DNA from: Okeania sp.
Lineage (GTDB): Bacteria; Cyanobacteriota; Cyanobacteriia; Cyanobacteriales; Microcoleaceae
DNA length: 11,747 nt
Reading direction: 5' to 3'
Assembly: GCF_035285525.1 (NCBI RefSeq)
Contig: NZ_JAYKGW010000200.1
Span: 1 to 11,747 of the forward strand
Part shown: in pieces, positions 1 to 11,747 of the stretch
Position numbering within the stretch: position 1 is the first letter of the stretch
Layout of the letters: every line of letters begins with the position of its first letter
Notes under the pieces: generated by a model
The model's input: the letters and a program-made list of their open reading frames with translations, nothing else
The model's database searches: none
Told to the model about the DNA's origin: nothing
Program-made: the position numbers and the translations under genes

Positions 1-283
1 AGATATTTTAGCTAAAGGCAAATTTTCTATAATTATTAAATATAGATATCCTCAGAATTTTCCACTTTCTGACTTTTGCCGAAAGTTGAGATATTTTGCC
101 AGAGAATATCAAAGTTTGCTTAGGAAAAATATTTTAGCTAAAGGCAAATTTTTTTTAATTCTTAAATATAGATATTCTGATAATTTATTACTTTCTGACT
201 TTTGCCGAAAATTCATAGATTTTGTCTGAGAATATCAAAGTTTATTTAGGAAAAATATTTTAGCTAAAGGCAAATTTTTTATC
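1..283. repeat. Tandem repeat with a 126-bp period, about 2.2 copies, truncated by the left window edge
   Basis: ATATTTTAGCTAAAGGCAAATTTT recurs at 3, 129 and 255, giving an exact 126-bp period. Units 3-128 and 129-254 align along their whole length at roughly 85% identity by eye. The third copy decays after about 283. The most conserved block is GAGAATATCAAAGTTT..TTAGGAAAAATATTTTAGCTAAAGGCAAATTTT. Confidence 0.9.
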
Positions 284-298
284 ATAAATATTTCTAGT

Positions 299-315
299 GC
301 GAGCATCTTGCTCGC
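299..315. terminator. Short GC-rich hairpin between the tandem repeat and the 3' end of the 1012-aa gene; possible terminator
   Basis: GCGAGC (299-304), loop ATCTT, GCTCGC (310-315) form a perfect 6-bp stem. It lies 84 nt downstream of the minus-strand stop at 399-401. No clear U-tract follows on either strand, so terminator function is uncertain. Confidence 0.3.
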
Positions 316-398
316 GTATATCTCAGCAATTTATAAACCACTGTAATATTTCAAATATTTCTACTATTTACTGAACACTTATTTTCCCCAACCTCCTA

Positions 399-3300
399 TT
401 AAAAATCAACTCCATCAACAGCATCATTAACCTCTGTCAAAAAAGCCAAAGCATTAAACTCTATACTTTCTGTCATCTGAGGAAAAATTGCTAAACTTCC
501 CAACGCTTCATCACCAATAATATTTTCATAAGGGTCTAACTTTAAACTTAAATTACTACTATCTCTTTCCTGTTTTTCAAACCTCGAAAAATGGAAAAAA
601 GTTAAATATTGAAGAATATCATTTTTCAACGAACTATCATAAACCAAACCTTGCCGAATGTCCTCATCATCCATCACCCCAGAATAATATTTTCCTAACA
701 AAGTGGAATAAGAAATAACGCCATTATAAAATCGTTCATCCTCAGTTCTTTTACCACCCACAGAAATGCCATTAAACAAATTGAAAAATACCACTGATTT
801 TTGACTACTATCTTCAGCAAGATTCATTAATTGTCTAGTGTCTTGAATATACAAAGATTTTGCTCCAGGAGTTTTGAGTTTTCGGACATAATATTTATCA
901 AAAAGTACAGGATATATTTTAATGTCATCTCGGTTTTGTTTCATCGTTTTAATAATAGTAGGAGACATAAAATATAATCTTTCTTCCTCTTCTTGTTGAG
1001 TAATATGTAATTTACTGGTATAAGGTGCTTGTGCTACATATAAAAAGTGTTGATATCCTTCCAAACAAAGTTCGCTAATTCTATCCATTAACACAGGTGG
1101 TTCCTCATACATCTTTCCTTGTTTATAGTTATCAAAAAATGTAGTCAAAGGTTGAATTTTTACACTGCCATTTTCTAACCTTTCAATACTTATTACTTCT
1201 CCAAATAAATTAGTAATTCTATCACTACGTTTTTGACTACCTTTTCTGGAGTCACTCAGTTTACTAGAAACAATAATAATTGCCAGTTTATCTAATAAAG
1301 TAAAATCAGAATTATTATTGAAACTAAACTTTTTAGGCAATACAGAATATAGGGAATTTAAACCATTCCTAACATAACTATTACCTACCCGAAAACCTTG
1401 AGAATTACACCGATATTTTTTACTAAAAATAAAAGCTAATGTTTTGGCAACATTAGCCAGAAACTTTTCAGCCGGAAAAGGATTTTCATGGGTTCCTTCA
1501 TGGAGTCGCAACATCGGAATAAATAACTCTTTTTCTTCTCCTGAATATTGCTCTAATAAAATATGTAAACAAAGATAAGATAACAATATCCAAGTAAAAC
1601 GATAGATAAATGCTTGAGTCGAATTTAATTGATTTTTTCCTGATTTTAAACGTTCATTATTGTAACTAAATAGAATAAATTTATATCCTTTCTGCACAAA
1701 ATTTTCGTGATAAATTTGCCTACAAGTATCTGTATTAGGTATCCACATTACAGGCAATGTTTTAATTCCTGCTATATCATATTCCCACTGAAAACTTTGG
1801 CGATCGCTTCCCTCAAAATAACGTACATCTTCTATCTTAATACTTGCAGGTAGCTGACACACCGCTCGATTATTTGTTGCTTCCTTAACCAGAAAAATAT
1901 ACCTCAGACATTTCTTATAATTCTCTCTTAAATCATCGTGAAAAAAATTACCTTGAAACAAACTATCATCATCAGTTTTGATAATTCTTTTATTAATACA
2001 AATTTCCCGCCTTTCTATAGAGTTAGGTAATTTTTTCCCTCTATCTAAAAAGTTTCTGACTAAACCCCTTAACTTCTCGATTTTTTGCTTCACTCCATAT
2101 CTCTTAAATCCTTCTATCAAGCCCCGAAAAATCTTATCTTTTTCATCATCATTATCTCCTTTCAATACAGGCAAAACATTTTCATCAAATTTAGGTATAG
2201 GATTATAAGTTAAATCATCATCATAATGATAATTCTCTTCCGTTGGGTTTGGGCAAGAAAATATAAAATAGTATAAAAAAGCTCGCGTCAATATTTTTCT
2301 TGCCCAAGTTTTCTTTTTCTCTGGATTAGCCTTTAACGCCTCATTTTCCTCATAATTATTATGAGTAATTATCTCCAAATTATAATCAAAAACTTCTTTT
2401 CCACCCCTAGCTTGTACTTTCCCATCCAACTTCATTTTCAAACCCAAAATAAACTGAGTTTCTCCTGTTTCTCTATTTGTAGTTTCTCCCAAATTACCAT
2501 GAATAATTGGAATAATTGGCAGTGCATCAAAAACTTCAGCACGAGCAAAAATATCCCGGTAATTAAAACTTTCTTCAGCATAAGAAACATCATAATATCC
2601 ATCAGCTTTAGACTCATCATTAATATATTCTTCCACTAACTTCAAACGCCGAATTAAAACTTTCATATAAATAACTCCTAGCTTATAATTAGTCTCAATA
2701 TTCGCTAATAAATGTTCTAAATATATAATTTTAGCTTCCTTTTTTAACTTCCCCAAAGTTTCCTCATCTACGAGTTTTTGTAACTTATTAAAATCGGAGT
2801 TTCTATCCTCAACTTGTTTTCCTAAAAGAACATAAATATCTTCAATCTCTTCTGGGTCTTCTGAATCAAAATTCTTTTGAATTCTCCGTTTAATTCCTGT
2901 TTTTAGCTGAGACTGAAACTGCGTAATATTTCCCACTGTAATTGTCAGCTTATGGAATTTTAACAAAGAATTACTACCGGGAAGTTGAGAATCTAAAATT
3001 AACTCTTGTTTTTGCAAGTCTATGTATTTTTCGTCAAAAGGATAAGCTAAACCTAGTTTATTAGCACGCCCCTGAAAATCTGTTAAATTAACAATCAAAC
3101 TATCGACAAAACTAGCAATATCTCCTATTCCTTCAGTAGATTCTAAATTAGCGATTAAATAGTCTTTTATTTCTCGTATTTTACTCAGAAATTTTTCTTT
3201 CTCTTTCTCTACAAAATTTACAGTAGCAACACGAACACCCTTCGTATTGCTTAAAGGATTTTGAATATCCATAGTAGCAATAGACTCAGCTATCTCATCA

Positions 3301-3437
3301 ATATTTATCAGTAAACGTCGGCGATCGCTCGATATTTTAAACAGATTTTGTTCTGGTAATTTATTCAAAATTTTTTCTAACAAGCTTTGATAGTTAACCG
3401 GAACTAGATTATCACCTTCCCTAATAGTATTTCCCAT
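399..3437 (-). CDS. Large hypothetical protein (1012 aa), family not recognised
   Basis: A 3039-nt uninterrupted ORF in DNA rich in stop-prone A/T triplets, starting at ATG 3435-3437 and ending at TAA 399-401. It contains two HIP1 sites (1800-1807, 3321-3328). The N-terminal 300 aa or so are K/E/L-rich and helix-like. There are two strongly hydrophobic segments (about aa 384-395 and 609-628). A lone HEGTH (aa 646-650, nt 1488-1502) is present. I found no canonical Walker A, DEAD/DEAH, HKD, HNH, GIY-YIG, RuvC-like IDRG or paired HEPN motifs. Confidence 0.85.
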   Translation of the reverse strand: MGNTIREGDNLVPVNYQSLLEKILNKLPEQNLFKISSDRRRLLINIDEIAESIATMDIQNPLSNTKGVRVATVNFVEKEKEKFLSKIREIKDYLIANLESTEGIGDIASFVDSLIVNLTDFQGRANKLGLAYPFDEKYIDLQKQELILDSQLPGSNSLLKFHKLTITVGNITQFQSQLKTGIKRRIQKNFDSEDPEEIEDIYVLLGKQVEDRNSDFNKLQKLVDEETLGKLKKEAKIIYLEHLLANIETNYKLGVIYMKVLIRRLKLVEEYINDESKADGYYDVSYAEESFNYRDIFARAEVFDALPIIPIIHGNLGETTNRETGETQFILGLKMKLDGKVQARGGKEVFDYNLEIITHNNYEENEALKANPEKKKTWARKILTRAFLYYFIFSCPNPTEENYHYDDDLTYNPIPKFDENVLPVLKGDNDDEKDKIFRGLIEGFKRYGVKQKIEKLRGLVRNFLDRGKKLPNSIERREICINKRIIKTDDDSLFQGNFFHDDLRENYKKCLRYIFLVKEATNNRAVCQLPASIKIEDVRYFEGSDRQSFQWEYDIAGIKTLPVMWIPNTDTCRQIYHENFVQKGYKFILFSYNNERLKSGKNQLNSTQAFIYRFTWILLSYLCLHILLEQYSGEEKELFIPMLRLHEGTHENPFPAEKFLANVAKTLAFIFSKKYRCNSQGFRVGNSYVRNGLNSLYSVLPKKFSFNNNSDFTLLDKLAIIIVSSKLSDSRKGSQKRSDRITNLFGEVISIERLENGSVKIQPLTTFFDNYKQGKMYEEPPVLMDRISELCLEGYQHFLYVAQAPYTSKLHITQQEEEERLYFMSPTIIKTMKQNRDDIKIYPVLFDKYYVRKLKTPGAKSLYIQDTRQLMNLAEDSSQKSVVFFNLFNGISVGGKRTEDERFYNGVISYSTLLGKYYSGVMDDEDIRQGLVYDSSLKNDILQYLTFFHFSRFEKQERDSSNLSLKLDPYENIIGDEALGSLAIFPQMTESIEFNALAFLTEVNDAVDGVDF

Positions 3438-3588
3438 TTTTATTGCACCCTAGTTAATTGTATTTATGCAATTATTATGCTGGAAATTATATCCAGCTAA
3501 ATTCTTATTTATTAATTATATAGACAAACTAACTACTATTATAAAATGATAAAATTCTATATATTTTCTTTATTTTTACCGAATAATT

Positions 3589-3721
3589 AAGCTTTCAAGC
3601 CTCTCCTTTAAAGGGGATAAAAAAAGAATATTCAATATAGTCAAGCCTCCTTATTCCAAGAGGTACTGATAACTTTACGGACTTTGCACGTCTAGCGTCC
3701 CTACTGATAACTGAAATGACC
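3589..3721 (-). repeat. Diverged copy of a dispersed MITE-like element (CAGTTATCAG / GGGACG-palindrome family)
   Basis: The reverse complement of 3702-3721 (GGTCATTTCAGTTATCAGT) is identical to 8197-8215. It is followed by a degenerate TAGGGACG...GTCCGTA palindrome, a second (C/A)AGTTATCAGTA, and a distal CCCCTTTAAAGGAGAGGCTTGAAAG block. That block matches CGCCTTCAAAGGGGAGGCTTAAAAC at 8498-8522. Confidence 0.6.
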
Positions 3722-4155
3722 AAACATTTTTCTGAACTTATGAAATTATACTCTTAAAGTTTTAACCAATTAACATAAGCATTCAGCTAGAAAATAAATA
3801 AAGCAAAAATTGCCTTAACTTCTACCACATTTTCAACCCATAAACCATAAACTAAACCAAAAGAAAAACCTGCTTTAGTTTCAAATAAAAGTAATAAACC
3901 TGATAACTAATACCTGACTGCTAACTGCTTACCACTAATCTTAATTTGGTTGTCAAAAATTCCAGAATAAAAGATAAGAAAGCATTCTTCAATTATCCCA
4001 GATTTTTCTAAACTTTTCCCAAAAAATATATTTTCACCAATCAAATAGGCAAAAGTAATTTTAAAAAGTAATTCTACCTAATTAAACATAGATAACCATT
4101 TTGTAATTATTTATGTTACATTAGAAATACATTGTGTAGAATAAAAGATAAAAGA

Positions 4156-4791
4156 ATGAATGAATACCATAAAATCCAAACCGTTTTTTTGAGAAATCCT
4201 GACAGTAATTATAAAGATTTACTGTTAGGTAAATTTGCTAAACCAGAATTTGATTTGCTCAAAAATATCGACTGGGTTTGGACAGAAAAAATAGACGGTA
4301 CAAACATCCGAATAATGTGGGATGGCGAGTCAGTTAAATTTGGAGGTAGAAGTGATAATGCTCAAATTCGTACATCATTATTAGAGGTGCTGCAAAAGAA
4401 ATTTACCGTAGATAAAATGAGTCGAGTATTTAAGGAACAAACAGAAGTTTGTTTATACGGTGAAGGTTACGGTAAAGGGACTCATAAAGGAGGAAATTAT
4501 TTACCAAATAGTGTTGATTTTATACTTTTTGATATTAAGATTGGAGAGTGGTGGTTAACAAGAGAAAGTATTGAAGAAATAGCAGAAATGCTTGGTATTA
4601 AAATTGTACCAATAATTGGTATTGGTTCCCTGGATAAAGCAGTAGAATTTGCCAAAAAAGGTTTCACTTCTCGCATAACAGAAAATAAACAATTTATGGC
4701 AGAAGGTTTGATTATGAAACCTCAGCAAGAATTATTTAATCGTGCTGGAAAGCGAGTAATAACTAAGATTAAATATAAAGATTTTTTTTGA
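4156..4791 (+). CDS. ATP-dependent RNA ligase family protein (nucleotidyltransferase domain only, about 211 aa)
   Basis: Covalent nucleotidyltransferase motifs appear in the canonical order. Motif I is TEKIDGTN, with the lysine codon at 4288-4290. Motif III-like FILFDI, motif IIIa-like LYGEGYG, motif IV AEGLIMK and motif V RVITKIKYK follow. The track ORF starts at TTG 4132, and I prefer the first in-frame ATG at 4156. The stop is TGA 4789-4791. No appended OB, C-terminal or kinase/phosphatase domain is present. Confidence 0.8.
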   Translation: MNEYHKIQTVFLRNPDSNYKDLLLGKFAKPEFDLLKNIDWVWTEKIDGTNIRIMWDGESVKFGGRSDNAQIRTSLLEVLQKKFTVDKMSRVFKEQTEVCLYGEGYGKGTHKGGNYLPNSVDFILFDIKIGEWWLTRESIEEIAEMLGIKIVPIIGIGSLDKAVEFAKKGFTSRITENKQFMAEGLIMKPQQELFNRAGKRVITKIKYKDFF

Positions 4792-4803
4792 TATTTTTAT
4801 AAA

Positions 4804-4857
4804 TAGGGACGTTGCATAACAAAAATGCGTTACATGTCGCGCAGCGAAACGTCCCTA
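4804..4857 (+). terminator. Long-loop palindrome of the GGGACG repeat family, placed as a possible terminator of the RNA ligase gene
   Basis: TAGGGACGTT (4804-4813) and AACGTCCCTA (4848-4857) form a perfect 10-bp stem around a 34-nt interior. It starts 13 nt after the stop codon, and CAAGATTTTGG follows it. The arms are the same as those of the palindromes at 8218-8245 and 8371-8396. Confidence 0.4.
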
Positions 4858-5592
4858 CAAGATTTTGGTTATGACAATGTGGTTCATCCATTTCAAAAGC
4901 GCTGTAAACATAATAACTTACTGAAGTTAACTGATAATTAATTTCATTCTTATATCACTTCTTGGAAATTAATTCCTCCTTTAGTCTGATAATGAGTTAA
5001 TAACTCAAAGCTAATAGCTGTTAGCTAAATTCTCTTACAAATAATCTTTCTCTACTTCTTACTCTTTTTTCTCTGATAGTAAGACTTTTATCTGAGGATT
5101 TTCTAATAATTTAGTTGCATCTACTAATAGTTTATCAGTCCAAAGTTCTTTTTTAAGACGCTGCAAGTTTCCCCAATTTTTGTCTAATTTTAATGCTGTT
5201 TCAGCTATTGTTAAACTTTCAGTTTTGTCTTTGTTGTAGAGAGCAACTCCTAATGCTAATTTAGGTTCTACTAATTGGTTATTAATTTCAAGTGCAGCTT
5301 GTCAATGTTCTATTGCTTCATCTATTTTTTTCATTTCATATTTAACTAAGCCAAGATTAATAATAGAAACTTCATAGTCTGGTTGAATTTCTAAAGCTTT
5401 TTCATAAGCAGCGATCGCCTCTTCATATCTTTCTAAATGTGACAGAGCAGTGCCTTTGTCAAACCAAGCTTCGTGAGAGTCTGGTTGAATTTCTAAAGCT
5501 TTTTCATAAGCAATGATCGCTTCTTCATATCTTTCTAAATTTTCCAGAGCAATACCTTTATTGCTCCAAACTTGGTGATTATCTGGTTTAAT

Positions 5593-6180
5593 TTATAGAA
5601 ATTTATCATAAGCATAAATCTCTTCTTTATATCTCCCTAAAAGTGACAAAGCATAGCCTTTATCGTACAAAGCTCCTTCATAATCTGGTTTAATTTCTAG
5701 AGCGTTATCATAAGCGATAATTGCTTCTTCATATTTTTCTAAATTTGAGAGAGCATAGCCTTTATTTTGCCAAGCATAGTGAGAGTTTTGTTTGATTTTT
5801 ATAGCTTTATCAAAAGCAAAAACAGCCTGTTCATATCTACCTAAATATCTCAAAGCAATACCTTTATTATTCCAAGCATCGTGAAAGTATCGTTTGATTT
5901 CTATAGCTTTATCAAAAGCAGAAAGCGCCTGTTCATATCTACCTAAATATCTCAAAGAATAGCCTTTATTGTTCCAAGCTTCGTGATAGTCTGATTTAAT
6001 TTCTAAAGATTTTTTATAAGCAAATATCGCCTCTTCATATCTGCCTAAATCTGACAGAGCAAGACCTTTATTGTTCCAAGTTTGATTATCATCTGGTTCT
6101 ATTTCTAGATATCTATCATAAATAGAAATTGCCTTTTCATATTTACCTAAATATCTTAGTGCGTTGCCTTTCTTGTTCAA
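5593..6180 (-). CDS. Longest uninterrupted TPR segment of the disrupted gene (195 codons); could be annotated as a stand-alone TPR protein
   Basis: The track ORF shows clear TPR periodicity. It is in the same frame as 6307-6588, and its only start is a TTG that reads as Leu within the repeat. Confidence 0.35.
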   Translation of the reverse strand: MNKKGNALRYLGKYEKAISIYDRYLEIEPDDNQTWNNKGLALSDLGRYEEAIFAYKKSLEIKSDYHEAWNNKGYSLRYLGRYEQALSAFDKAIEIKRYFHDAWNNKGIALRYLGRYEQAVFAFDKAIKIKQNSHYAWQNKGYALSNLEKYEEAIIAYDNALEIKPDYEGALYDKGYALSLLGRYKEEIYAYDKFL

Positions 6181-6306
6181 AGCATAGTGATAGTTTGGTT
6201 TGATTTATATAGCTCTATCAAAAGCAAAAACAGCCTGTTCATATCTACCTAAATACCTCAAAGCAATGCCTTTGCTATTCAAAGCATAGTAATAGTTTGG
6301 TTTGAT

Positions 6307-6588
6307 TTATATAGCTCTATCAAAAGCAGAAATAGCCTCTTCGTATCTGCCTAAATCTGACAGAGCATTGCCTTTGCCATTCCAAGCTTCGTGAAAGTCT
6401 GGTTTAATTTCAATAGCTCTATCAAAAGCATAAATCGTCTGTTCATATCTACCTAAGTCTGACAAAGCGATGCCTTTATTATACCAAGCTTGGTAATAGT
6501 CTGGTTCAATTTCTATCGCTTTTTCATAAGCAGCGATCACCTCTTCATATCTTTCTGATTTTATTAGTGCATCTCCCTTATTTCTCAA
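6307..6588 (-). CDS. Upstream TPR segment of the disrupted gene (93 codons)
   Basis: The track ORF holds about 2.7 TPR units. It is in frame with 5593-6180, starts on a TTG, and ends at a TAA that replaces the conserved Glu of AIEIKP. Confidence 0.3.
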   Translation of the reverse strand: MRNKGDALIKSERYEEVIAAYEKAIEIEPDYYQAWYNKGIALSDLGRYEQTIYAFDRAIEIKPDFHEAWNGKGNALSDLGRYEEAISAFDRAI

Positions 6589-6687
6589 AATTATGTGATA
6601 GCCTGGTTTAAGTTCTAGGTCTATTTTTTATCTATCATAATCAGTTATATGTAAATTTTGTGATAATTAACTAGCAACCATAGTTAT

Positions 6688-6728
6688 AAAAAAACAAGCT
6701 TAAACTTTTTGAACGCTTAAGCTTGTTT
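6688..6728 (-). terminator. Rho-independent terminator of dnaN
   Basis: AAACAAGCTTAA (6692-6703) and TTAAGCTTGTTT (6717-6728) form a perfect 12-bp stem with a 13-nt loop. On the minus strand the stem runs straight into a T7 tract: 6694-6692 close the stem and 6691-6688 trail it. The structure begins 27 nt after the dnaN stop. Confidence 0.7.
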
Positions 6729-6754
6729 CTTTATTATAATAAAAAACTTTACCT

Positions 6755-7918
6755 TTAACTTCTTAACTGAACAGGCATAATTAAATAAGTCATTTTTAAT
6801 CCTCCCAAAGGATTTAAAACTACCGGAGTTGTAGCCGTATTTAACTGAATAGAAATTTCCGAAGCTGAAGGAATAGCTTTCAAACCTTCAATCAAATACT
6901 TAACATTAAAAGCAATTTCTTCTGGTTCATCAGCAGAAATTTGTGCTGCCAGAGACTCTTTTCCACTACCCACATCTTGAGCTTCTACAGATAAAGAAAT
7001 TTCCTGATTAACATTATCAATAGAACACTTTAAAATGTTATTTTTTTGGTCAGCTAAAACAGCTATTCTTTCCACCGCTCCTAAAAATTGTTTCCTATCT
7101 ACATTAATTTGATTAGTAAATTTATTAGGTAATAATTGACGATAAGCTGGATATTGACCTTCCAATTTTCGGCTAGTTAAACGTTGTTCTCCCAACTCAA
7201 AAATTACCTGACTTTCATCAAATTTCAACGTCACAGAAGCACCAGATTTACCCATTCCAATCATTCGTTCAATTTCTCTTAAAGCTTTTGCTGGAATAGT
7301 TGCTTCAAACTCTGGCATTTCTTCAACTTCTTCTGTTTCTTCCTCATCCTCCGGTGTGACACTTTCAGTCTCCACTATTGCTAAACGATGACCATCAGTA
7401 GCAGCAAATACTAAACCATCTGGTTGTACTTTTAAATTTACTCCCGTTAATACTTGTTTGGTTTCATCAGGACTTGTCGCAAATAGAGTACCTTTCAAAC
7501 CACTAATTAAAGCTTCCGGTGGTAAATTTACTACTCCTCCATCTTCTACGTTTGGTAATTCTGGATATTCCTCCCCTCCCATACCTCTAACTTGGTAACG
7601 TCCAGATGTGGAAGTAAGGGTAGCAACGGCTTCTCCCTCATCATCATCAATGGTAATATTACCGTCTGGTAATCTTGAGACAATATCGTTAAATAATTTG
7701 GCAGGTAAGGTAAAAGTTCCACCGGTTTCTACAACTGCTGGAAAACTGGAACGAATGCCTAAACTTAGGTCAAAACCTGTTAATTCTAAACGTTGATTCT
7801 CTACATCTGCGGTTAATAAAACGTTGGCTAATACGGGATGATTAGGGCGAGAAGGAACTGCACGGCTAACTAAAGAAAGGTTACTACTTAAGTCACTTTG
7901 GGTACAAGTTAATTTCAT
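6755..7918 (-). CDS. dnaN: DNA polymerase III beta subunit (sliding clamp)
   Basis: 387 aa. The N-terminus MKLTCTQSDLSSNLSLVSRAVPSRPNHPVLANVLLTAD..LELTGFDLSLGI is the characteristic cyanobacterial DnaN signature. The length, the C-terminal ..VVLNP....YLIMPVQLR and the adjacent DnaA-box cluster all fit. Confidence 0.97.
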   Translation of the reverse strand: MKLTCTQSDLSSNLSLVSRAVPSRPNHPVLANVLLTADVENQRLELTGFDLSLGIRSSFPAVVETGGTFTLPAKLFNDIVSRLPDGNITIDDDEGEAVATLTSTSGRYQVRGMGGEEYPELPNVEDGGVVNLPPEALISGLKGTLFATSPDETKQVLTGVNLKVQPDGLVFAATDGHRLAIVETESVTPEDEEETEEVEEMPEFEATIPAKALREIERMIGMGKSGASVTLKFDESQVIFELGEQRLTSRKLEGQYPAYRQLLPNKFTNQINVDRKQFLGAVERIAVLADQKNNILKCSIDNVNQEISLSVEAQDVGSGKESLAAQISADEPEEIAFNVKYLIEGLKAIPSASEISIQLNTATTPVVLNPLGGLKMTYLIMPVQLRS

Positions 7919-8100
7919 TGGATTTTATTTATTTGATGAACTTGAGGTTTTTTCAACAAAGCTTACCTCGGACTGAAATCCTAGCATTATTAACTGAAGT
8001 AATCTAGACTTCTAATACCAAGGGCGATAAATGTTTTTTGGAAATGTGTAGAAGTCAGTAAGAGGGAAAAGTTTTATTAATAATATTTCTATTTAATATC

Positions 8101-8118
8101 TGTGGAAAATGTGGAAAA
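8101..8118 (-). promoter_or_regulatory. Two abutting DnaA boxes (TTTTCCACA on the minus strand)
   Basis: TGTGGAAAA occurs at 8101-8109 and again at 8110-8118, as exact 9-mers. Confidence 0.8.
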
Positions 8119-8164
8119 CTTCAAAAAATTTTTACCAGGACAATGATTTCACCAATAAATAGCC

Positions 8165-8184
8165 TGTGGAAAACCTGTGGAAAA
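8165..8184 (-). promoter_or_regulatory. Two DnaA boxes separated by 2 nt
   Basis: TGTGGAAAA occurs at 8165-8173 and 8176-8184, as exact 9-mers in the same orientation as the first pair. Confidence 0.8.
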
Positions 8185-8196
8185 ATCTATATTATG

Positions 8197-8262
8197 GGTC
8201 ATTTCAGTTATCAGTTTGTAGGGACGTTGCATGCAACGTCCTTACAGTTATCAGTATTTTTG
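8197..8262 (+). repeat. Partial copy of the CAGTTATCAG / GGGACG-palindrome element
   Basis: GGTCATTTCAGTTATCAGT comes first. The palindrome GTAGGGACGTTGCATGCAACGTCCTTAC (8218-8245) has one mismatch. It is flanked by direct CAGTTATCAG repeats (8205-8214 and 8245-8254), followed by TATTTTTGG. Confidence 0.7.
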
Positions 8263-8350
8263 GCTGTTTGCACAGCATGACCTAATTTTTAATTAAAATA
8301 CTTTTCAAAAATTAAAATTAACATAGATGGATTTATGTCAAGAAAGCCTA

Positions 8351-8523
8351 ACTTTTCAGTTATCAGTTCCTAGGGACGTTGCATGCAAGGTCCGTACAGT
8401 TATCACGTCCGTACAGTTATCAGTATTTTTGGTTATTTACGAAGCATTCCACACCGAAAGTATCGGGATTGAAATACTGAATTTTTATTTCTTTCATCGC
8501 CTTCAAAGGGGAGGCTTAAAACC
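8351..8523 (+). repeat. Full-length copy (about 170 bp) of the same MITE-like element
   Basis: CAGTTATCAG is at 8357-8366 and TAGGGACGTTGCATGCAAGGTCCGTA at 8371-8396. An internally duplicated GTCCGTACAGTTATCA, then TATTTTTGG, follow. The distal block ATTGAAATACTGAATTTTT...CCTTCAAAGGGGAGGCTTAAAAC is shared with 3589-3660 on the opposite strand. Confidence 0.65.
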
Positions 8524-8823
8524 TGATTTTAATTGATTGAAAACAAAGATTAATCGTAAGCATTCAGCTATTAGCATCTCAGCTATCAGCTCTTTAATGA
8601 AGAGAGCAAATTTTTGAACTTATAGTACATTTTTAAGCCATAAATTGAAGTACAAAAACGAGGTTTTGAGTTGTCAACCCATACATTGTTTGGCAGGAAA
8701 TGTAAATATTTCCCAGAAGCTGATAACTGATCGCTGATTGCTAAATACTTAAGGTTAATCTTCCCATACTGAATCCTCAAATGATACTATTCGTAGTACC
8801 AATATCTATTTTTGCCAAAAAAT

Positions 8824-11747
8824 ATGAATACCTTTTCTAAGTACATCAAAGAAATAGAATTTTATCTACAATCCGACAACGCTACAGAACATACATATCG
8901 CCCCATATTAAAAAGTTTAATAGAATCTTTTGCCACTGAAATTAATGCAATTAATGAACCTAAAAGAATTAAATGCGGTGCGCCAGATTTTTTAGTTTTC
9001 CAAAAACAACAAACTATCGGATATATAGAAGCAAAAAATATTGGTACTTCCCTCAATAAAGCCGAGAAAACTACTCAACTAACTCGCTATTTTAAAAGTT
9101 TAGGAAATTTAATTTTAACCGACCATATAGAATTTCGTTGGTATATTAAAGGCGAACAAAGTTTAAAAGCTAAAATTGCCAAACTTAGCAAAAATAAGAA
9201 ACAATTAACTCCAGACTTAGAAGGAATAGAACAAACAAAACAAATATTCCAAAAATTCTTAAATATTAACATTCCCTTAGTCAAAACACCCCAGGAATTA
9301 GCAACTAGAATGGCAAATATTGCTCAGTTAATTAGAGAAGCGATCGCTACTGCTTTAAATGATGAAGATAAGGGAGGAACATTACGAGACCAACTCGAAT
9401 CTTTTCAGAATGTTTTACTGAAAGATTTAACTAAAAATAAGTTCGCAGATATGTACGCCCAAACTATTTGTTATGGTTTATTTGCTGCTCGTTGTAATTG
9501 CGATATTCCCGATAATTTTTCTAGGTGGGTAGCAGCTCGCGATTTGCCAAAAACCAACCCATTTCTTAGGAATATTTTCGGGCAAATTGTTGGTACAGAA
9601 TTAGATGAAAGAATTGCTTGGGCGGTAGATGATTTAGCAGAATTATTGAAGCATACAGACATGACAGAAATTCTTCAGGATTTCGGAAAAAAGACTCGTA
9701 AATCTGACCCAGTTGTTCATTTTTATGAAACATTTCTAACAGCTTATGACCCAAAAATGAGAAAATCGCGTGGTGTTTATTATACTCCCGAACCTGTGGT
9801 TAATTATATTGTCAGAAGTGTCGATTATATTTTAAAAAATAAGTTTGATATTCCTAAAGGTTTAGCAGATGCTAATAAAATCAAAATTTCTCATCCTAAC
9901 CAGAAAGGAAATATTGATAGTAATCAAGAAATTCATCAAGTTTTAATTCTCGACCCGGCAGTGGGAACAGGAACTTTTATGTATGCTGTTATTAGCCATA
10001 TTTATGAAAGTTTTCTACAACAAAAAGGAATGTGGTCTAGTTATGTTAGTCAACATTTATTGCCTCGTTTATTTGGTTTTGAATTATTGATGGCTCCTTA
10101 TACGGTAGCGCACATGAAATTAGGTTTACAACTGCAAGAATTAGGTTATAAATTTGATTCAGATGAACGGTTGAGAATTTATTTAACTAATACATTACAA
10201 GAGGCATTTCAATTAGAAAAACAAGTAATTGGTTTTGCAACTAGGATTAAAGAAGAGGCTGAAAATGCTAAAGAAATTAAACAAGAATTACCAGTAATGA
10301 TAATCTTAGGAAATCCTCCTTATGCTTATGAGTCAGAAAATACTGACCCTTGGATTATTAATTTAGTCAGAGATTATTATCAAATTGACGGGAAACCTTT
10401 AGGAGAAAAAAACCCTAAAGGATTATTAGATGATTATGTTAAATTTATTCGTTTTAGTCAGTGCCAGATTGAAAAAACAGGATATGGTGTATTAGCTTTT
10501 ATTACTAATCATGGTTATTTAGATAATCCAACTTTTCGTGGAATGCGTCAAAGTTTAATGACAACTTTTGATGAGATTTATGTTTTAGATTTGCATGGAA
10601 ATAGTAAAAAGAAAGAAGTTTCTCCTGATGGTTCTCCAGACCAAAATGTGTTTGATATTCAGCAGGGAGTAGCTATTGGAATTTTTATTAAGTTGCCTAG
10701 AAAAAGTCAGAAATTAGCAAAAGTTTATCATGCAGATTTATGGGGAGTACGGGAGTTATTTGAAGATACTTCTACTGGTAAAAAATTGATAGCTGGTAAG
10801 TATCATTGGTTGGAAGAAAATGATATTTATTCTACAGAATGGGAAGTTTTAAAACCTCAGTCAAAATTCTATTTATTTAAGCCTCAAAATATTGATTTTC
10901 TTTCCGAGTATGAGCAATTCTGGAAAGTAACTGAAATTTTCCCAACTCATAGTGTCGGAGTTATTACTGCCAGAGATAATTTAACAATTCATTTCACAGA
11001 AAAAGATATTTGGAATACTGTAAATAAGTTTGTAAATTTATCTGTAGAATCGGCAAGAAATGAATATAATTTAGGCAAAGATACAAGAGACTGGAAAGTT
11101 GATTTAGCTCAAAAAGATTTAAAAAAATCTGAGATTTCTCAAAGCAATATTACTCCTATACTTTATCGACCTTTTGACAAAAGATATACTTATTATACAG
11201 GCAGATCGAGAGGTTTTCATTGTACTCCTAGAGGTGAAGTAATGAAACATTTTTTGGCAGGAGAAAACTTAGGTTTAATTACAACTCGTCAGCAGTCACA
11301 ACCCGGAAATTGGCATCTATTTGGAGTGACAGAAAATATTATTGAATCTTGTGCAATATCAAATAAAACAAAAGAGATAAATTACCTTTTTCCTCTCTAC
11401 CTTTACCCTGATACTCCAGGTGAAAAACAATTAGGAATAGGTCGTCGCGCCAACCTCGCACCAGAATTTGTTCAAGACTTCTCAAAACGACTCAAAATGA
11501 AATTTATAATTGATAGTAAAGACAGTAAAAAACAAACATTCAGAGCTGAAGATATCTTTAATTATATATATGCAATTTTTCATTCTCCCACCTACCGCAG
11601 TCGCTACTCCGAATTTCTGAAAATAGACTTTCCACACATTCCTTTAACTAACAACCCAGAATTATTTTTCCAACTAATAAAAATAGGCGATCGCCTGATT
11701 AATCTCCACTTAATGAAAATAACTGCCTCAGAAATTAGTAGTTATCC
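8824..11747 (+). CDS. MmeI-like Type IIG restriction endonuclease / N6-adenine DNA methyltransferase fusion (3'-partial, at least 974 codons)
   Basis: My own translation reads from ATG 8824 to the window end with no stop; the ORF track does not list it. The N-terminus has a PD-(D/E)xK nuclease motif: GAPD55 (8986-8988) ... IE69-A-K71 (9028-9036). LNKA..QLTRYF and LILTD..FRWY follow, colinear as I recall it with the MmeI D-x9-EMK...LDKA...VCDFQRFRL nuclease domain. The gamma-class methyltransferase order is present: HFYETFL and YYTP, then motif I ILDPAVGTGTF (9952-9978), then motif IV NPPY (10312-10323). The C-terminal FHSPTYRSRYSEFLKIDFPHIP is typical of the Type IIG / type ISP-like target-recognition region. 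Confidence 0.9.
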   Translation, partial: MNTFSKYIKEIEFYLQSDNATEHTYRPILKSLIESFATEINAINEPKRIKCGAPDFLVFQKQQTIGYIEAKNIGTSLNKAEKTTQLTRYFKSLGNLILTDHIEFRWYIKGEQSLKAKIAKLSKNKKQLTPDLEGIEQTKQIFQKFLNINIPLVKTPQELATRMANIAQLIREAIATALNDEDKGGTLRDQLESFQNVLLKDLTKNKFADMYAQTICYGLFAARCNCDIPDNFSRWVAARDLPKTNPFLRNIFGQIVGTELDERIAWAVDDLAELLKHTDMTEILQDFGKKTRKSDPVVHFYETFLTAYDPKMRKSRGVYYTPEPVVNYIVRSVDYILKNKFDIPKGLADANKIKISHPNQKGNIDSNQEIHQVLILDPAVGTGTFMYAVISHIYESFLQQKGMWSSYVSQHLLPRLFGFELLMAPYTVAHMKLGLQLQELGYKFDSDERLRIYLTNTLQEAFQLEKQVIGFATRIKEEAENAKEIKQELPVMIILGNPPYAYESENTDPWIINLVRDYYQIDGKPLGEKNPKGLLDDYVKFIRFSQCQIEKTGYGVLAFITNHGYLDNPTFRGMRQSLMTTFDEIYVLDLHGNSKKKEVSPDGSPDQNVFDIQQGVAIGIFIKLPRKSQKLAKVYHADLWGVRELFEDTSTGKKLIAGKYHWLEENDIYSTEWEVLKPQSKFYLFKPQNIDFLSEYEQFWKVTEIFPTHSVGVITARDNLTIHFTEKDIWNTVNKFVNLSVESARNEYNLGKDTRDWKVDLAQKDLKKSEISQSNITPILYRPFDKRYTYYTGRSRGFHCTPRGEVMKHFLAGENLGLITTRQQSQPGNWHLFGVTENIIESCAISNKTKEINYLFPLYLYPDTPGEKQLGIGRRANLAPEFVQDFSKRLKMKFIIDSKDSKKQTFRAEDIFNYIYAIFHSPTYRSRYSEFLKIDFPHIPLTNNPELFFQLIKIGDRLINLHLMKITASEISSY

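Follow-up and report, generated by a model that had tools for sequence, protein, structure and literature searches.

Systems that couple an Argonaute to an effector make up a major class of prokaryotic immunity and have yielded programmable tools for work with nucleic acids, and the newly recognised branches (pPIWI-RE, DdmDE, ApsAB and SPARTA/SPARDA) have each brought new mechanisms. Three of these, in which an Argonaute-like sensor is joined to a helicase partner, are the closest described kinds to the system considered here, which came to light through a 1012-amino-acid (aa) protein encoded on an 11,747-nucleotide contig of the cyanobacterium Okeania sp. (NZ_JAYKGW010000200.1, positions 1 to 11,747; hereafter the window). 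DdmE of Vibrio cholerae is a catalytically inactive 'long-C' prokaryotic Argonaute (pAgo) which recruits the helicase-nuclease DdmD. ApsAB from E. coli ST38 has anti-plasmid activity, and ApsAB-like systems have been reported in cyanobacteria. For pPIWI-RE, associated with the helicase DinG and a restriction endonuclease (REase), a guide-dependent role in restriction was predicted (Burroughs, Iyer, Aravind 2013).

The Okeania protein is real and belongs to a large, conserved and uncharacterised family. Confident structure prediction assigns to its C-terminal half an Argonaute-like MID-PIWI fold whose active site is degenerate, and the Argonaute-like gene forms a tight, conserved two-gene module with a gene for a novel superfamily 2 (SF2) helicase-like protein. 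By the comparisons made here, the module falls outside each of the three described systems.

The family and its predicted fold

A preliminary description of the window, made from its letters alone, had called the protein an orphan of no recognisable family. The absence of a family holds for every sequence search made: the query has no match at E ≤ 1 in Pfam, NCBIfam or PADLOC, a set of 45 diverse members gave nothing relevant against Pfam at E ≤ 10 (no Piwi and no pPIWI_RE model), and phmmer and hmmsearch runs against PDB sequences, with the single protein and with family profiles, returned no match. The word orphan has to be dropped. One search returned 576 homologous clusters at 90% identity, nearly all of ~1000 aa and full length, and HMMER, run exhaustively over 1.84 billion representatives, recovered 270 clusters at 50% identity with E ≤ 1e-3, including 155 with E ≤ 1e-30. 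All members are annotated as hypothetical, as is the recorded Okeania sp. protein of identical sequence; Pfam, NCBIfam and PADLOC hold no model of the family, and no prior description of it was found in the library searched by topic and accession.

The family is carried by at least 165 species-representative genomes (genome scan with alignment A1), and all 80 that were listed are cyanobacterial. Members occur in Oscillatoriales/Microcoleaceae (Okeania, Trichodesmium, Dapis, Hydrocoleum, Microcoleus, Kamptonema, Oscillatoria, Laspinema and Phormidium), in Nostocales (Tolypothrix, Calothrix, Anabaena and Sphaerospermopsis), and in Moorena, Planktothrix and Pleurocapsales. Divergent members of 21-27% identity are found in Bacillota, namely the Bacillus cereus group, Gottfriedia and Epulopiscium, and the distribution over the two phyla is patchy. 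Six large conjugative Nostocales plasmids carry members, and one metagenome-assembled genome has two copies, 90% and 58% identical to the query. Searches for phage-encoded homologues and for viral structural relatives found none.

The fold was approached by structure prediction. An AlphaFold2 model of the full-length protein, built with 30 sequences, has a predicted local distance difference test score (pLDDT) of 79.5 and a predicted template modelling score (pTM) of 0.72, and a model of residues 470-1012 (543 aa; 89 diverse sequences) reaches 86.9 and 0.87. When the full-length model was searched against the PDB with Foldseek, the top 21 matches were all of the Argonaute family, including TtAgo, MILI and the QDE-2 MID-PIWI structure; for the C-terminal model the top 23 were all Argonaute-superfamily chains at a probability of ~1.0 and E-values down to 7e-8, with TtAgo (7e-8), yeast Med13 (9e-8), the short pAgos of SPARTA/SPARDA, CpAgo, QDE-2 MID-PIWI and the inactive long-B RsAgo (template modelling score, TM-score, up to 0.38) among them. 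These Argonaute-superfamily matches of the predicted models span 400-570 aligned columns. The preliminary description had expected an alpha/beta enzymatic or nucleic-acid-binding fold in the C-terminal part and had proposed a look for PIWI/RNase H-like folds with AlphaFold and Foldseek; on both counts it proved well aimed. At the level of fold, Foldseek thus recovers the arrangement of a Rossmann-like MID domain followed by an RNase H-fold PIWI domain, and residues 587-706 run beta-alpha-beta-alpha-beta-alpha-beta in the models; at the level of sequence, neither Pfam PF02171 nor pAgo profile similarity was detected.

Residue conservation was read from 45 members of 21-50% identity, Bacillota included. 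In the MID-like domain the conserved positions are R644, H646, (R661), K665, Q680 (100%), G681, N691, S695 (100%), Y697 and K702, and in the PIWI-like domain S725, D729 (93%), G746, E747, D/E785, Y904, Y910, H949 (100%), E954 (96%) and K966; both sets are kept from cyanobacteria to Bacillota. The string RLHEGTH (644-650), listed in the preliminary description as the only R-x5-H/HExxH string, is not a zincin-type site; its R644 and H646 belong to the conserved positions of the MID-like domain. Set against the motif of the MID 5'-end pocket, (Y/H/R)-x3-K...Q...K, the family offers a candidate pocket R661-x3-K665...Q680-G681...K702, in which R661 is the consensus (the query itself has A661) and the spacing is near that of R418-K422-Q433-K457 in TtAgo; the invariant Q680-G681 resembles the QG of the ApsB motif Y-x3-K...QG...K. 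By secondary-structure register, D729 and H949 fit the first and fourth positions of the catalytic DEDX tetrad. The strand-4 position 803 (Y-I/V-A-x-A-P) is K, Q, R, H or N in 43 of the 45 members and never a conserved acid. Active Argonautes carry their second catalytic Asp there, which leaves the canonical tetrad of this family incomplete.

The Foldseek ranking continues immediately below the Argonautes with NurA, the HerA-NurA complex and TdpAB (E 4e-4 to 1e-3, probability 0.54-0.82), and RNase H-fold proteins follow as well. This brings up an alternative: the C-terminal domain could be a NurA-like or other RNase H-fold nuclease, and the gene pair a guide-free helicase-nuclease machine for end resection or restriction. 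The conserved D729, E747, D/E785, H949 and E954 could form a non-canonical metal site in such an enzyme, and the missing profile similarity to Argonautes and low TM-scores to them would fit as well. We nevertheless hold this explanation to be improbable. Every Argonaute is placed ahead of the NurA chains (E 4e-4 or worse); the Argonaute matches are three to four orders of magnitude better and extend over 400-570 columns corresponding to MID plus PIWI, beyond an RNase H core. Further, the RNase H-like domain follows on a Rossmann-like domain in which a polar cluster is conserved, which is the order of MID-PIWI proteins, and the matches include structures that consist of MID-PIWI only (QDE-2, short pAgos) as well as Med13. 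Finally, Helicase_C and SF2 motifs mark the partner described below as an SF2 helicase and not as the HerA (FtsK-like) hexameric ATPase with which NurA pairs.

The helicase-like partner and the known systems

In Kamptonema, Oscillatoria, Dapis and Trichodesmium, an ORF (open reading frame) of 1237-1269 aa comes next after the Argonaute-like gene, in the same orientation. Pairing was counted over 77 testable loci, those with at least 1.5 kb of sequence downstream of the Argonaute-like gene, and a ~1240-aa SF2-helicase-like gene adjoins it in 72. In 67 loci the helicase-like ORF is the next gene downstream and has the same orientation, often with gaps of 13-27 bp or overlaps of 4-8 bp, and in five it is immediately upstream, these being paralogue A-helicase-paralogue B operons; two further loci end inside a repeat array and only three are solo. 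Pairs with overlapping ORFs are found on plasmid C of A. variabilis ATCC 29413 as genes AVA_RS29110/29105, on plasmid pNPM2 of Nostoc N6 and in Bacillus, where the pairing persists at 21% identity. It is this gene, expected to lie outside the window, that is the informative partner of the Okeania protein.

Variants of the arrangement were also seen. The three-gene operons (L083 1310-11012, L084, L068, L074 and L080) belong to some Microcoleus-type genomes and have 4-bp ORF overlaps; their paralogues A and B are only ~45% identical. Solo copies of 'B type' exist (L086, 76% identical to paralogue B of L083), and L050 carries two tandem Argonaute-like/helicase modules at 511-10683. On a 6.7-kb metagenome contig of high GC content, a 2028-aa ORF (P0156) joins both proteins through a linker of ~40 aa; it is either a true fusion or a product of read-through or sequencing error.

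The partner has the SF2-type motifs GNPGIGKT, DEIT (M-I/V-DE-I/V) and QVIYRxRG (Q-x2-Y-R-x-R-G), and Helicase_C was matched in 16 of 16 partners at 28-30 bits, above the gathering score of 23.5; some also match ResIII or DEAD. A conserved stretch of ~400 aa forms its N-terminus, and the Walker A motif, to which K426 of the Kamptonema partner belongs, follows at residue ~420. Neither the N-terminal stretch nor the C-terminal flank of ~380 aa had any match in the sequence and profile searches, and the same kind of search, with Pfam, NCBIfam, PADLOC and PDB profiles, yielded no nuclease family for the partner, the PDB profiles giving only insignificant generic P-loop/helicase matches. No convincing PD-(D/E)xK motif was apparent by eye in the Argonaute-like protein or in the helicase partner. 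The P-loop has weak matches to nSTAND3, AAA_22 and AAA_16, and only three Cys are conserved, at scattered positions. Matches to the PADLOC models PDC-S49, mad8, SngC and Aga_Helical-REase and to Pfam DpnII-MboI were taken as chance because they are weak and were seen in one member only.

The likeness to DdmDE lies in the two-gene make-up, an Argonaute-fold protein without the DEDX tetrad and an SF2 helicase partner of ~1200 aa, in carriage on mobile or island DNA, and in what is likely a shared logic of a sensor that recruits a motor. However, neither protein has profile similarity to DdmE or DdmD in the PDB (E ≤ 10) or a PADLOC match, and no DdmE chain is among the top 50 fold matches. The 1012-aa protein is ~300 aa longer than DdmE with an unrelated N-terminal half, and the gene order is reversed, the Argonaute-like gene coming first. 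DdmD has its P-loop at K55 and a C-terminal PD-(D/E)xK domain, whereas the partner has its P-loop at residue ~420 and no recognisable PD-(D/E)xK; the DdmDE/ApsAB partner architecture of an N-terminal SF2 helicase and a C-terminal PD-(D/E)xK was not recovered by sequence searches.

ApsAB shares with the module an Argonaute-like protein that is invisible to Pfam Piwi and was found only by structure modelling, a 'QG' MID-like motif and a helicase partner. In cyanobacteria, however, ApsA-like proteins have ~1315 aa and a P-loop at residue ~55, ApsB-like proteins have ~770 aa against ~1000 aa here, and the helicase gene comes first, opposite to the present order. ApsB has been reported to lack the RNase H fold of PIWI, which is predicted for the 1012-aa protein. 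An hhalign comparison with eight ApsB-like N-terminal fragments of 400 aa, which do not cover the MID region of ApsB, gave a probability of 0.18. By size, motif position, gene order and this comparison of N-terminal fragments, the cyanobacterial ApsAB-like systems appear to be a different family.

The pPIWI-RE systems likewise place a PIWI-module protein in a close-knit operon with an SF2 helicase; that protein has a family-specific, non-PAZ N-terminus and in many cases a degenerate catalytic site. Yet none of the 45 members matches the pPIWI_RE Pfam models (DUF3893/RNaseH_pPIWI_RE) at E ≤ 10. The strict order REase-DinG-PIWI of those operons differs from the Argonaute-like gene followed by the helicase with no separate REase gene, and the Fe-S Cys cluster of DinG is missing from the partner. 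R/K952 and E954, conserved near the C-terminus, might correspond to the absolutely conserved Arg and Glu that pPIWI-RE carries on the extension of its PIWI beta-sheet.

The best structural matches for residues 470-1012 remain the classical pAgos (long-A TtAgo, long-B RsAgo and the short SPARTA/SPARDA proteins) and Med13. An incomplete catalytic tetrad and, presumably, dependence on an associated effector are shared with long-B and short pAgos. Unlike classical Argonautes, the protein gives no Piwi, PAZ or N-domain signal in Pfam (the query has no PAZ match) and lacks their conserved C-terminal '...FFV' end. Effectors of the classical systems are TIR, SIR2 or nuclease-APAZ proteins, whereas here the effector would be a helicase-like ATPase.

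Proposed function and genomic context

Our preferred reading, to which we give a rough probability of 0.55, is that the module uses a guide to recognise foreign DNA and that the helicase partner serves as effector. The cluster of basic and polar residues in the MID-like domain would be suited to hold the 5' end of a short nucleic-acid guide, and the PIWI-like domain would bind the guide-target duplex, probably with no slicing since it is without the second catalytic Asp. The gene is presumably co-transcribed with that of the ~1240-aa SF2-helicase-type ATPase. If it works as DdmDE and ApsAB do, base pairing would let the Argonaute-like protein recognise invading DNA of plasmids or phages, and the helicase would then be recruited or activated to unwind and destroy it; guide binding, the type of target, recruitment and a defence phenotype are all points that we infer. 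A fuller picture is offered tentatively, at somewhat less than even odds: the family might be an unrecognised Argonaute/PIWI clade that no current sequence model detects, in which a 470-aa N-terminal module peculiar to it and a degenerate active site go together with a new SF2 helicase-like effector; it might act in a guide-directed manner against plasmids or phages and have been spread by plasmids and islands between cyanobacteria, Trichodesmium, Microcoleus and Nostocales among them, and Bacillota, and in the Okeania lineage a variable 126-bp minisatellite lying between the two genes may regulate or feed the module.

Several results weigh against guide-directed defence. No sequence or profile method ties the protein to any Argonaute, pPIWI-RE, DdmE or ApsB; hhalign against an alignment of 13 TtAgo-family sequences gave a probability of 0.12, with a pAgo profile that was narrow because the TtAgo homologue search retrieved only 15 sequences, all from Thermaceae. 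TM-scores to Argonautes are 0.24-0.38 with root-mean-square deviations of ~10-13 Å, and the similarity is therefore a fold-class match of a divergent member, not a close structural relationship. The residue assignments come from secondary-structure register, not from 3-D superposition, and a nuclease domain was identified neither in the Argonaute-like protein nor in the partner. As for the genome, housekeeping genes make up most of the chromosomal neighbours, and a defence-island context on the chromosome is unsupported, PADLOC showing no enrichment among 143 neighbouring ORFs. The breadth of the family in filamentous cyanobacteria and its adjacency to dnaA/dnaN in the Okeania/Trichodesmium lineage fit a role in genome maintenance too.

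The low TM-scores, the weak nSTAND3, AAA_22 and AAA_16 matches of the partner and an Argonaute link that sequence methods do not support could also mean that the Foldseek similarity is an artefact of modelling or search, with the protein having an unrelated structural or regulatory role beside a STAND-like or AAA-type ATPase. This we judge very improbable: two independent models, built on different alignments, returned the same exclusive list of Argonautes at a probability of 1.0, the C-terminal model is confident where it matters, and all 16 partners pass the Helicase_C gathering score, some matching ResIII or DEAD.

The genomic context bears on the choice between a conflict system and chromosome maintenance. 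Neighbours were counted at 91 loci. A defence or nucleic-acid-processing role had been proposed in the preliminary description; the role is plausible, but the neighbours then cited for it are not conserved with the family. The RNA ligase was rejected as a conserved partner (3 of 91 loci) and is a lineage-specific neighbour, being present only in the three closest loci (L005/L011, L014); the restriction-modification (RM) gene was rejected likewise, with a fragment at a single locus. The suggested check for defence islands showed no PADLOC enrichment around chromosomal copies, as given above. In the Okeania/Trichodesmium lineage (Okeania, Dapis and Trichodesmium), the module lies downstream of dnaN, near dnaA/dnaN; dnaN is upstream of the Argonaute-like gene in 16 of the 91 loci, and the T. 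erythraeum copy is at ~12.9-15.9 kb of the chromosome.

Such an origin-region position, together with presence in at least 165 cyanobacterial species, lends some weight to a genome-maintenance role. The Argonaute-like/helicase pair could serve the chromosomes of large, polyploid filamentous cyanobacteria by acting on R-loops, on replication termination and decatenation, or on replication-transcription conflicts. Similar roles have been put forward both for TtAgo and for PIWI-RE of Pseudomonas stutzeri, which is paired with the helicase DinG, deletion of that PIWI-RE alters cell division and ciprofloxacin sensitivity, and the family occurs in Epulopiscium, another giant polyploid bacterium; the housekeeping neighbours and the want of defence-gene enrichment agree. 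We consider this role, the chief rival of our preferred reading, unlikely all the same. Plasmid copies adjoin integrases, a transposase and the DISARM gene drmD, the Bacillus copy sits between three large serine recombinases and a SIR2 gene, the spread across phyla is patchy, flanking genes vary between genera, and paralogues, tandem modules and solo copies occur. Moreover, at the syntenic site dnaN is 82-93% identical (82-88% for L017 and L018 against the window) and the Argonaute-like gene only 57-58%, a divergence far faster than that of the adjacent gene, which points to replacement of alleles or to a strong acceleration of divergence in the module. Given the plasmid and island copies, this divergence and the genome with two copies, a mobile, fast-evolving conflict system fits better than a core housekeeping gene.

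Other elements were noted near some copies. In Dapis (L004 6612-8123) the interval between dnaA and dnaN, just upstream of the module, holds a group II intron-type reverse transcriptase (RVT_N, RVT_1, GIIM), several RVT_N fragments lie upstream of the Trichodesmium copy (L006), and at L092 15487-17884 a ZorA-like/OmpA-like gene pair, which may represent Zorya components, lies 2.6 kb away from the solo Epulopiscium copy.

Filamentous cyanobacteria that are ecologically dominant (Trichodesmium, Okeania, Microcoleus and Nostocales) commonly carry the family, which is also present in the Bacillus cereus group. If the module restricts plasmids or phages, it would help to explain the poor transformability of many of these cyanobacteria and would add a new helicase effector architecture to Argonaute biology. 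If it maintains chromosomes in polyploid giant cells, it would show the PIWI fold in a housekeeping use that is new for bacteria. The plasmid-borne or Bacillus copies would allow a direct test of either outcome.

The repeat array and other features of the window

The coordinates of the gene, its domains, its neighbours and the related repeat arrays are collected in Table 1. Downstream of the Argonaute-like gene, on its left in the window, come 2.2 repeat copies, which run into the contig end. By blastn and Tandem Repeats Finder (TRF), an array of 125-126-bp units sits exactly between the Argonaute-like and helicase-like genes throughout the Okeania/Dapis clade, with ~2 to 24 copies in sister genomes. 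The repeat, at first listed as an accessory neighbour, is no independent element but what separates the module's two genes in the Okeania lineage. The assembly therefore broke inside this spacer, and the helicase gene should follow immediately beyond position 1. The 126-bp unit folds only marginally better than shuffled sequences (z = -1.9). Unrelated short tandem repeats occupy the same gap in other lineages (42 bp in L019, 91 bp in L003 and 88 bp in L020).

Table 1. Coordinates of the Argonaute-like gene, its domains, neighbouring features and repeat arrays of related loci
Sequence	Feature	Coordinates	Strand	Basis or remark
Window	Argonaute-like protein gene, 1012 aa, ATG start	399..3437	minus	ORF list and translation; stop codon 399-401
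Window	N-terminal region, aa 1-469	2031..3437	minus	Secondary structure of model (alpha/beta and long helices); family-specific, without detectable relative; conserved P307, K336
Window	Beta-rich linker domain, aa 470-586	1680..2030	minus	Secondary structure of model; within Argonaute-matching C-terminal model
Window	Predicted MID-like Rossmann-type domain, aa 587-706	1320..1679	minus	Topology, conservation, Foldseek matches to MID-PIWI structures
Window	Predicted PIWI-like RNase H-fold domain, aa 717-1012	402..1289	minus	Foldseek and conservation tables
Window	126-bp tandem repeat, 2.2 copies	3-282		TRF; cut by contig end
Window	Stand-alone Rnl2-like RNA ligase	4132-4791	plus	Pfam (PF09414, 2e-20); divergent from Argonaute-like gene
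Window	Tetratricopeptide repeat (TPR) ORFs	5593-6588	minus	Domain scan
Window	dnaN	6755-7918		Domain scan
Window	Type ISP/IIG-like RM ORF, open at right end	8797-11745	plus	Type_ISP_C 4e-69; N6_Mtase, Eco57I and MmeI methylase signals
L010	Repeat array, 24 copies	4369-7418
L016	Repeat array, ~13 copies	11112-12735
L013	Repeat array, 7.7 copies	11364-12322
L004, L007, L009	Repeat arrays, 1.8-2.5 copies
L011	Repeat array	11300-13375		Reaches contig end

Much of what the preliminary description had read directly from the letters was borne out. The gene is ATG-initiated and the largest complete ORF of the window, and the quoted peptide strings lie at exactly the residues given, namely GISVGGKRT at 890-898, LAIIIVSSKL at 718-727, HFLYVAQAP at 797-805 and SVVFFNLF at 881-888, in addition to RLHEGTH. 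The protein has no Walker A motif, in line with the reported absence of a canonical P-loop. Two HIP1 sites lie within the gene, at 1800 and 3321, and the tandem repeat, the RNA ligase and the RM ORF are all present as noted. An Rfam scan of the window gave no match. In the minus-strand TPR region at 5372-6609, two ORFs of 195 and 93 aa lie inside one repeat array with a period of 102 bp, and this may be a single TPR gene split by a frameshift or the result of recent repeat expansion.

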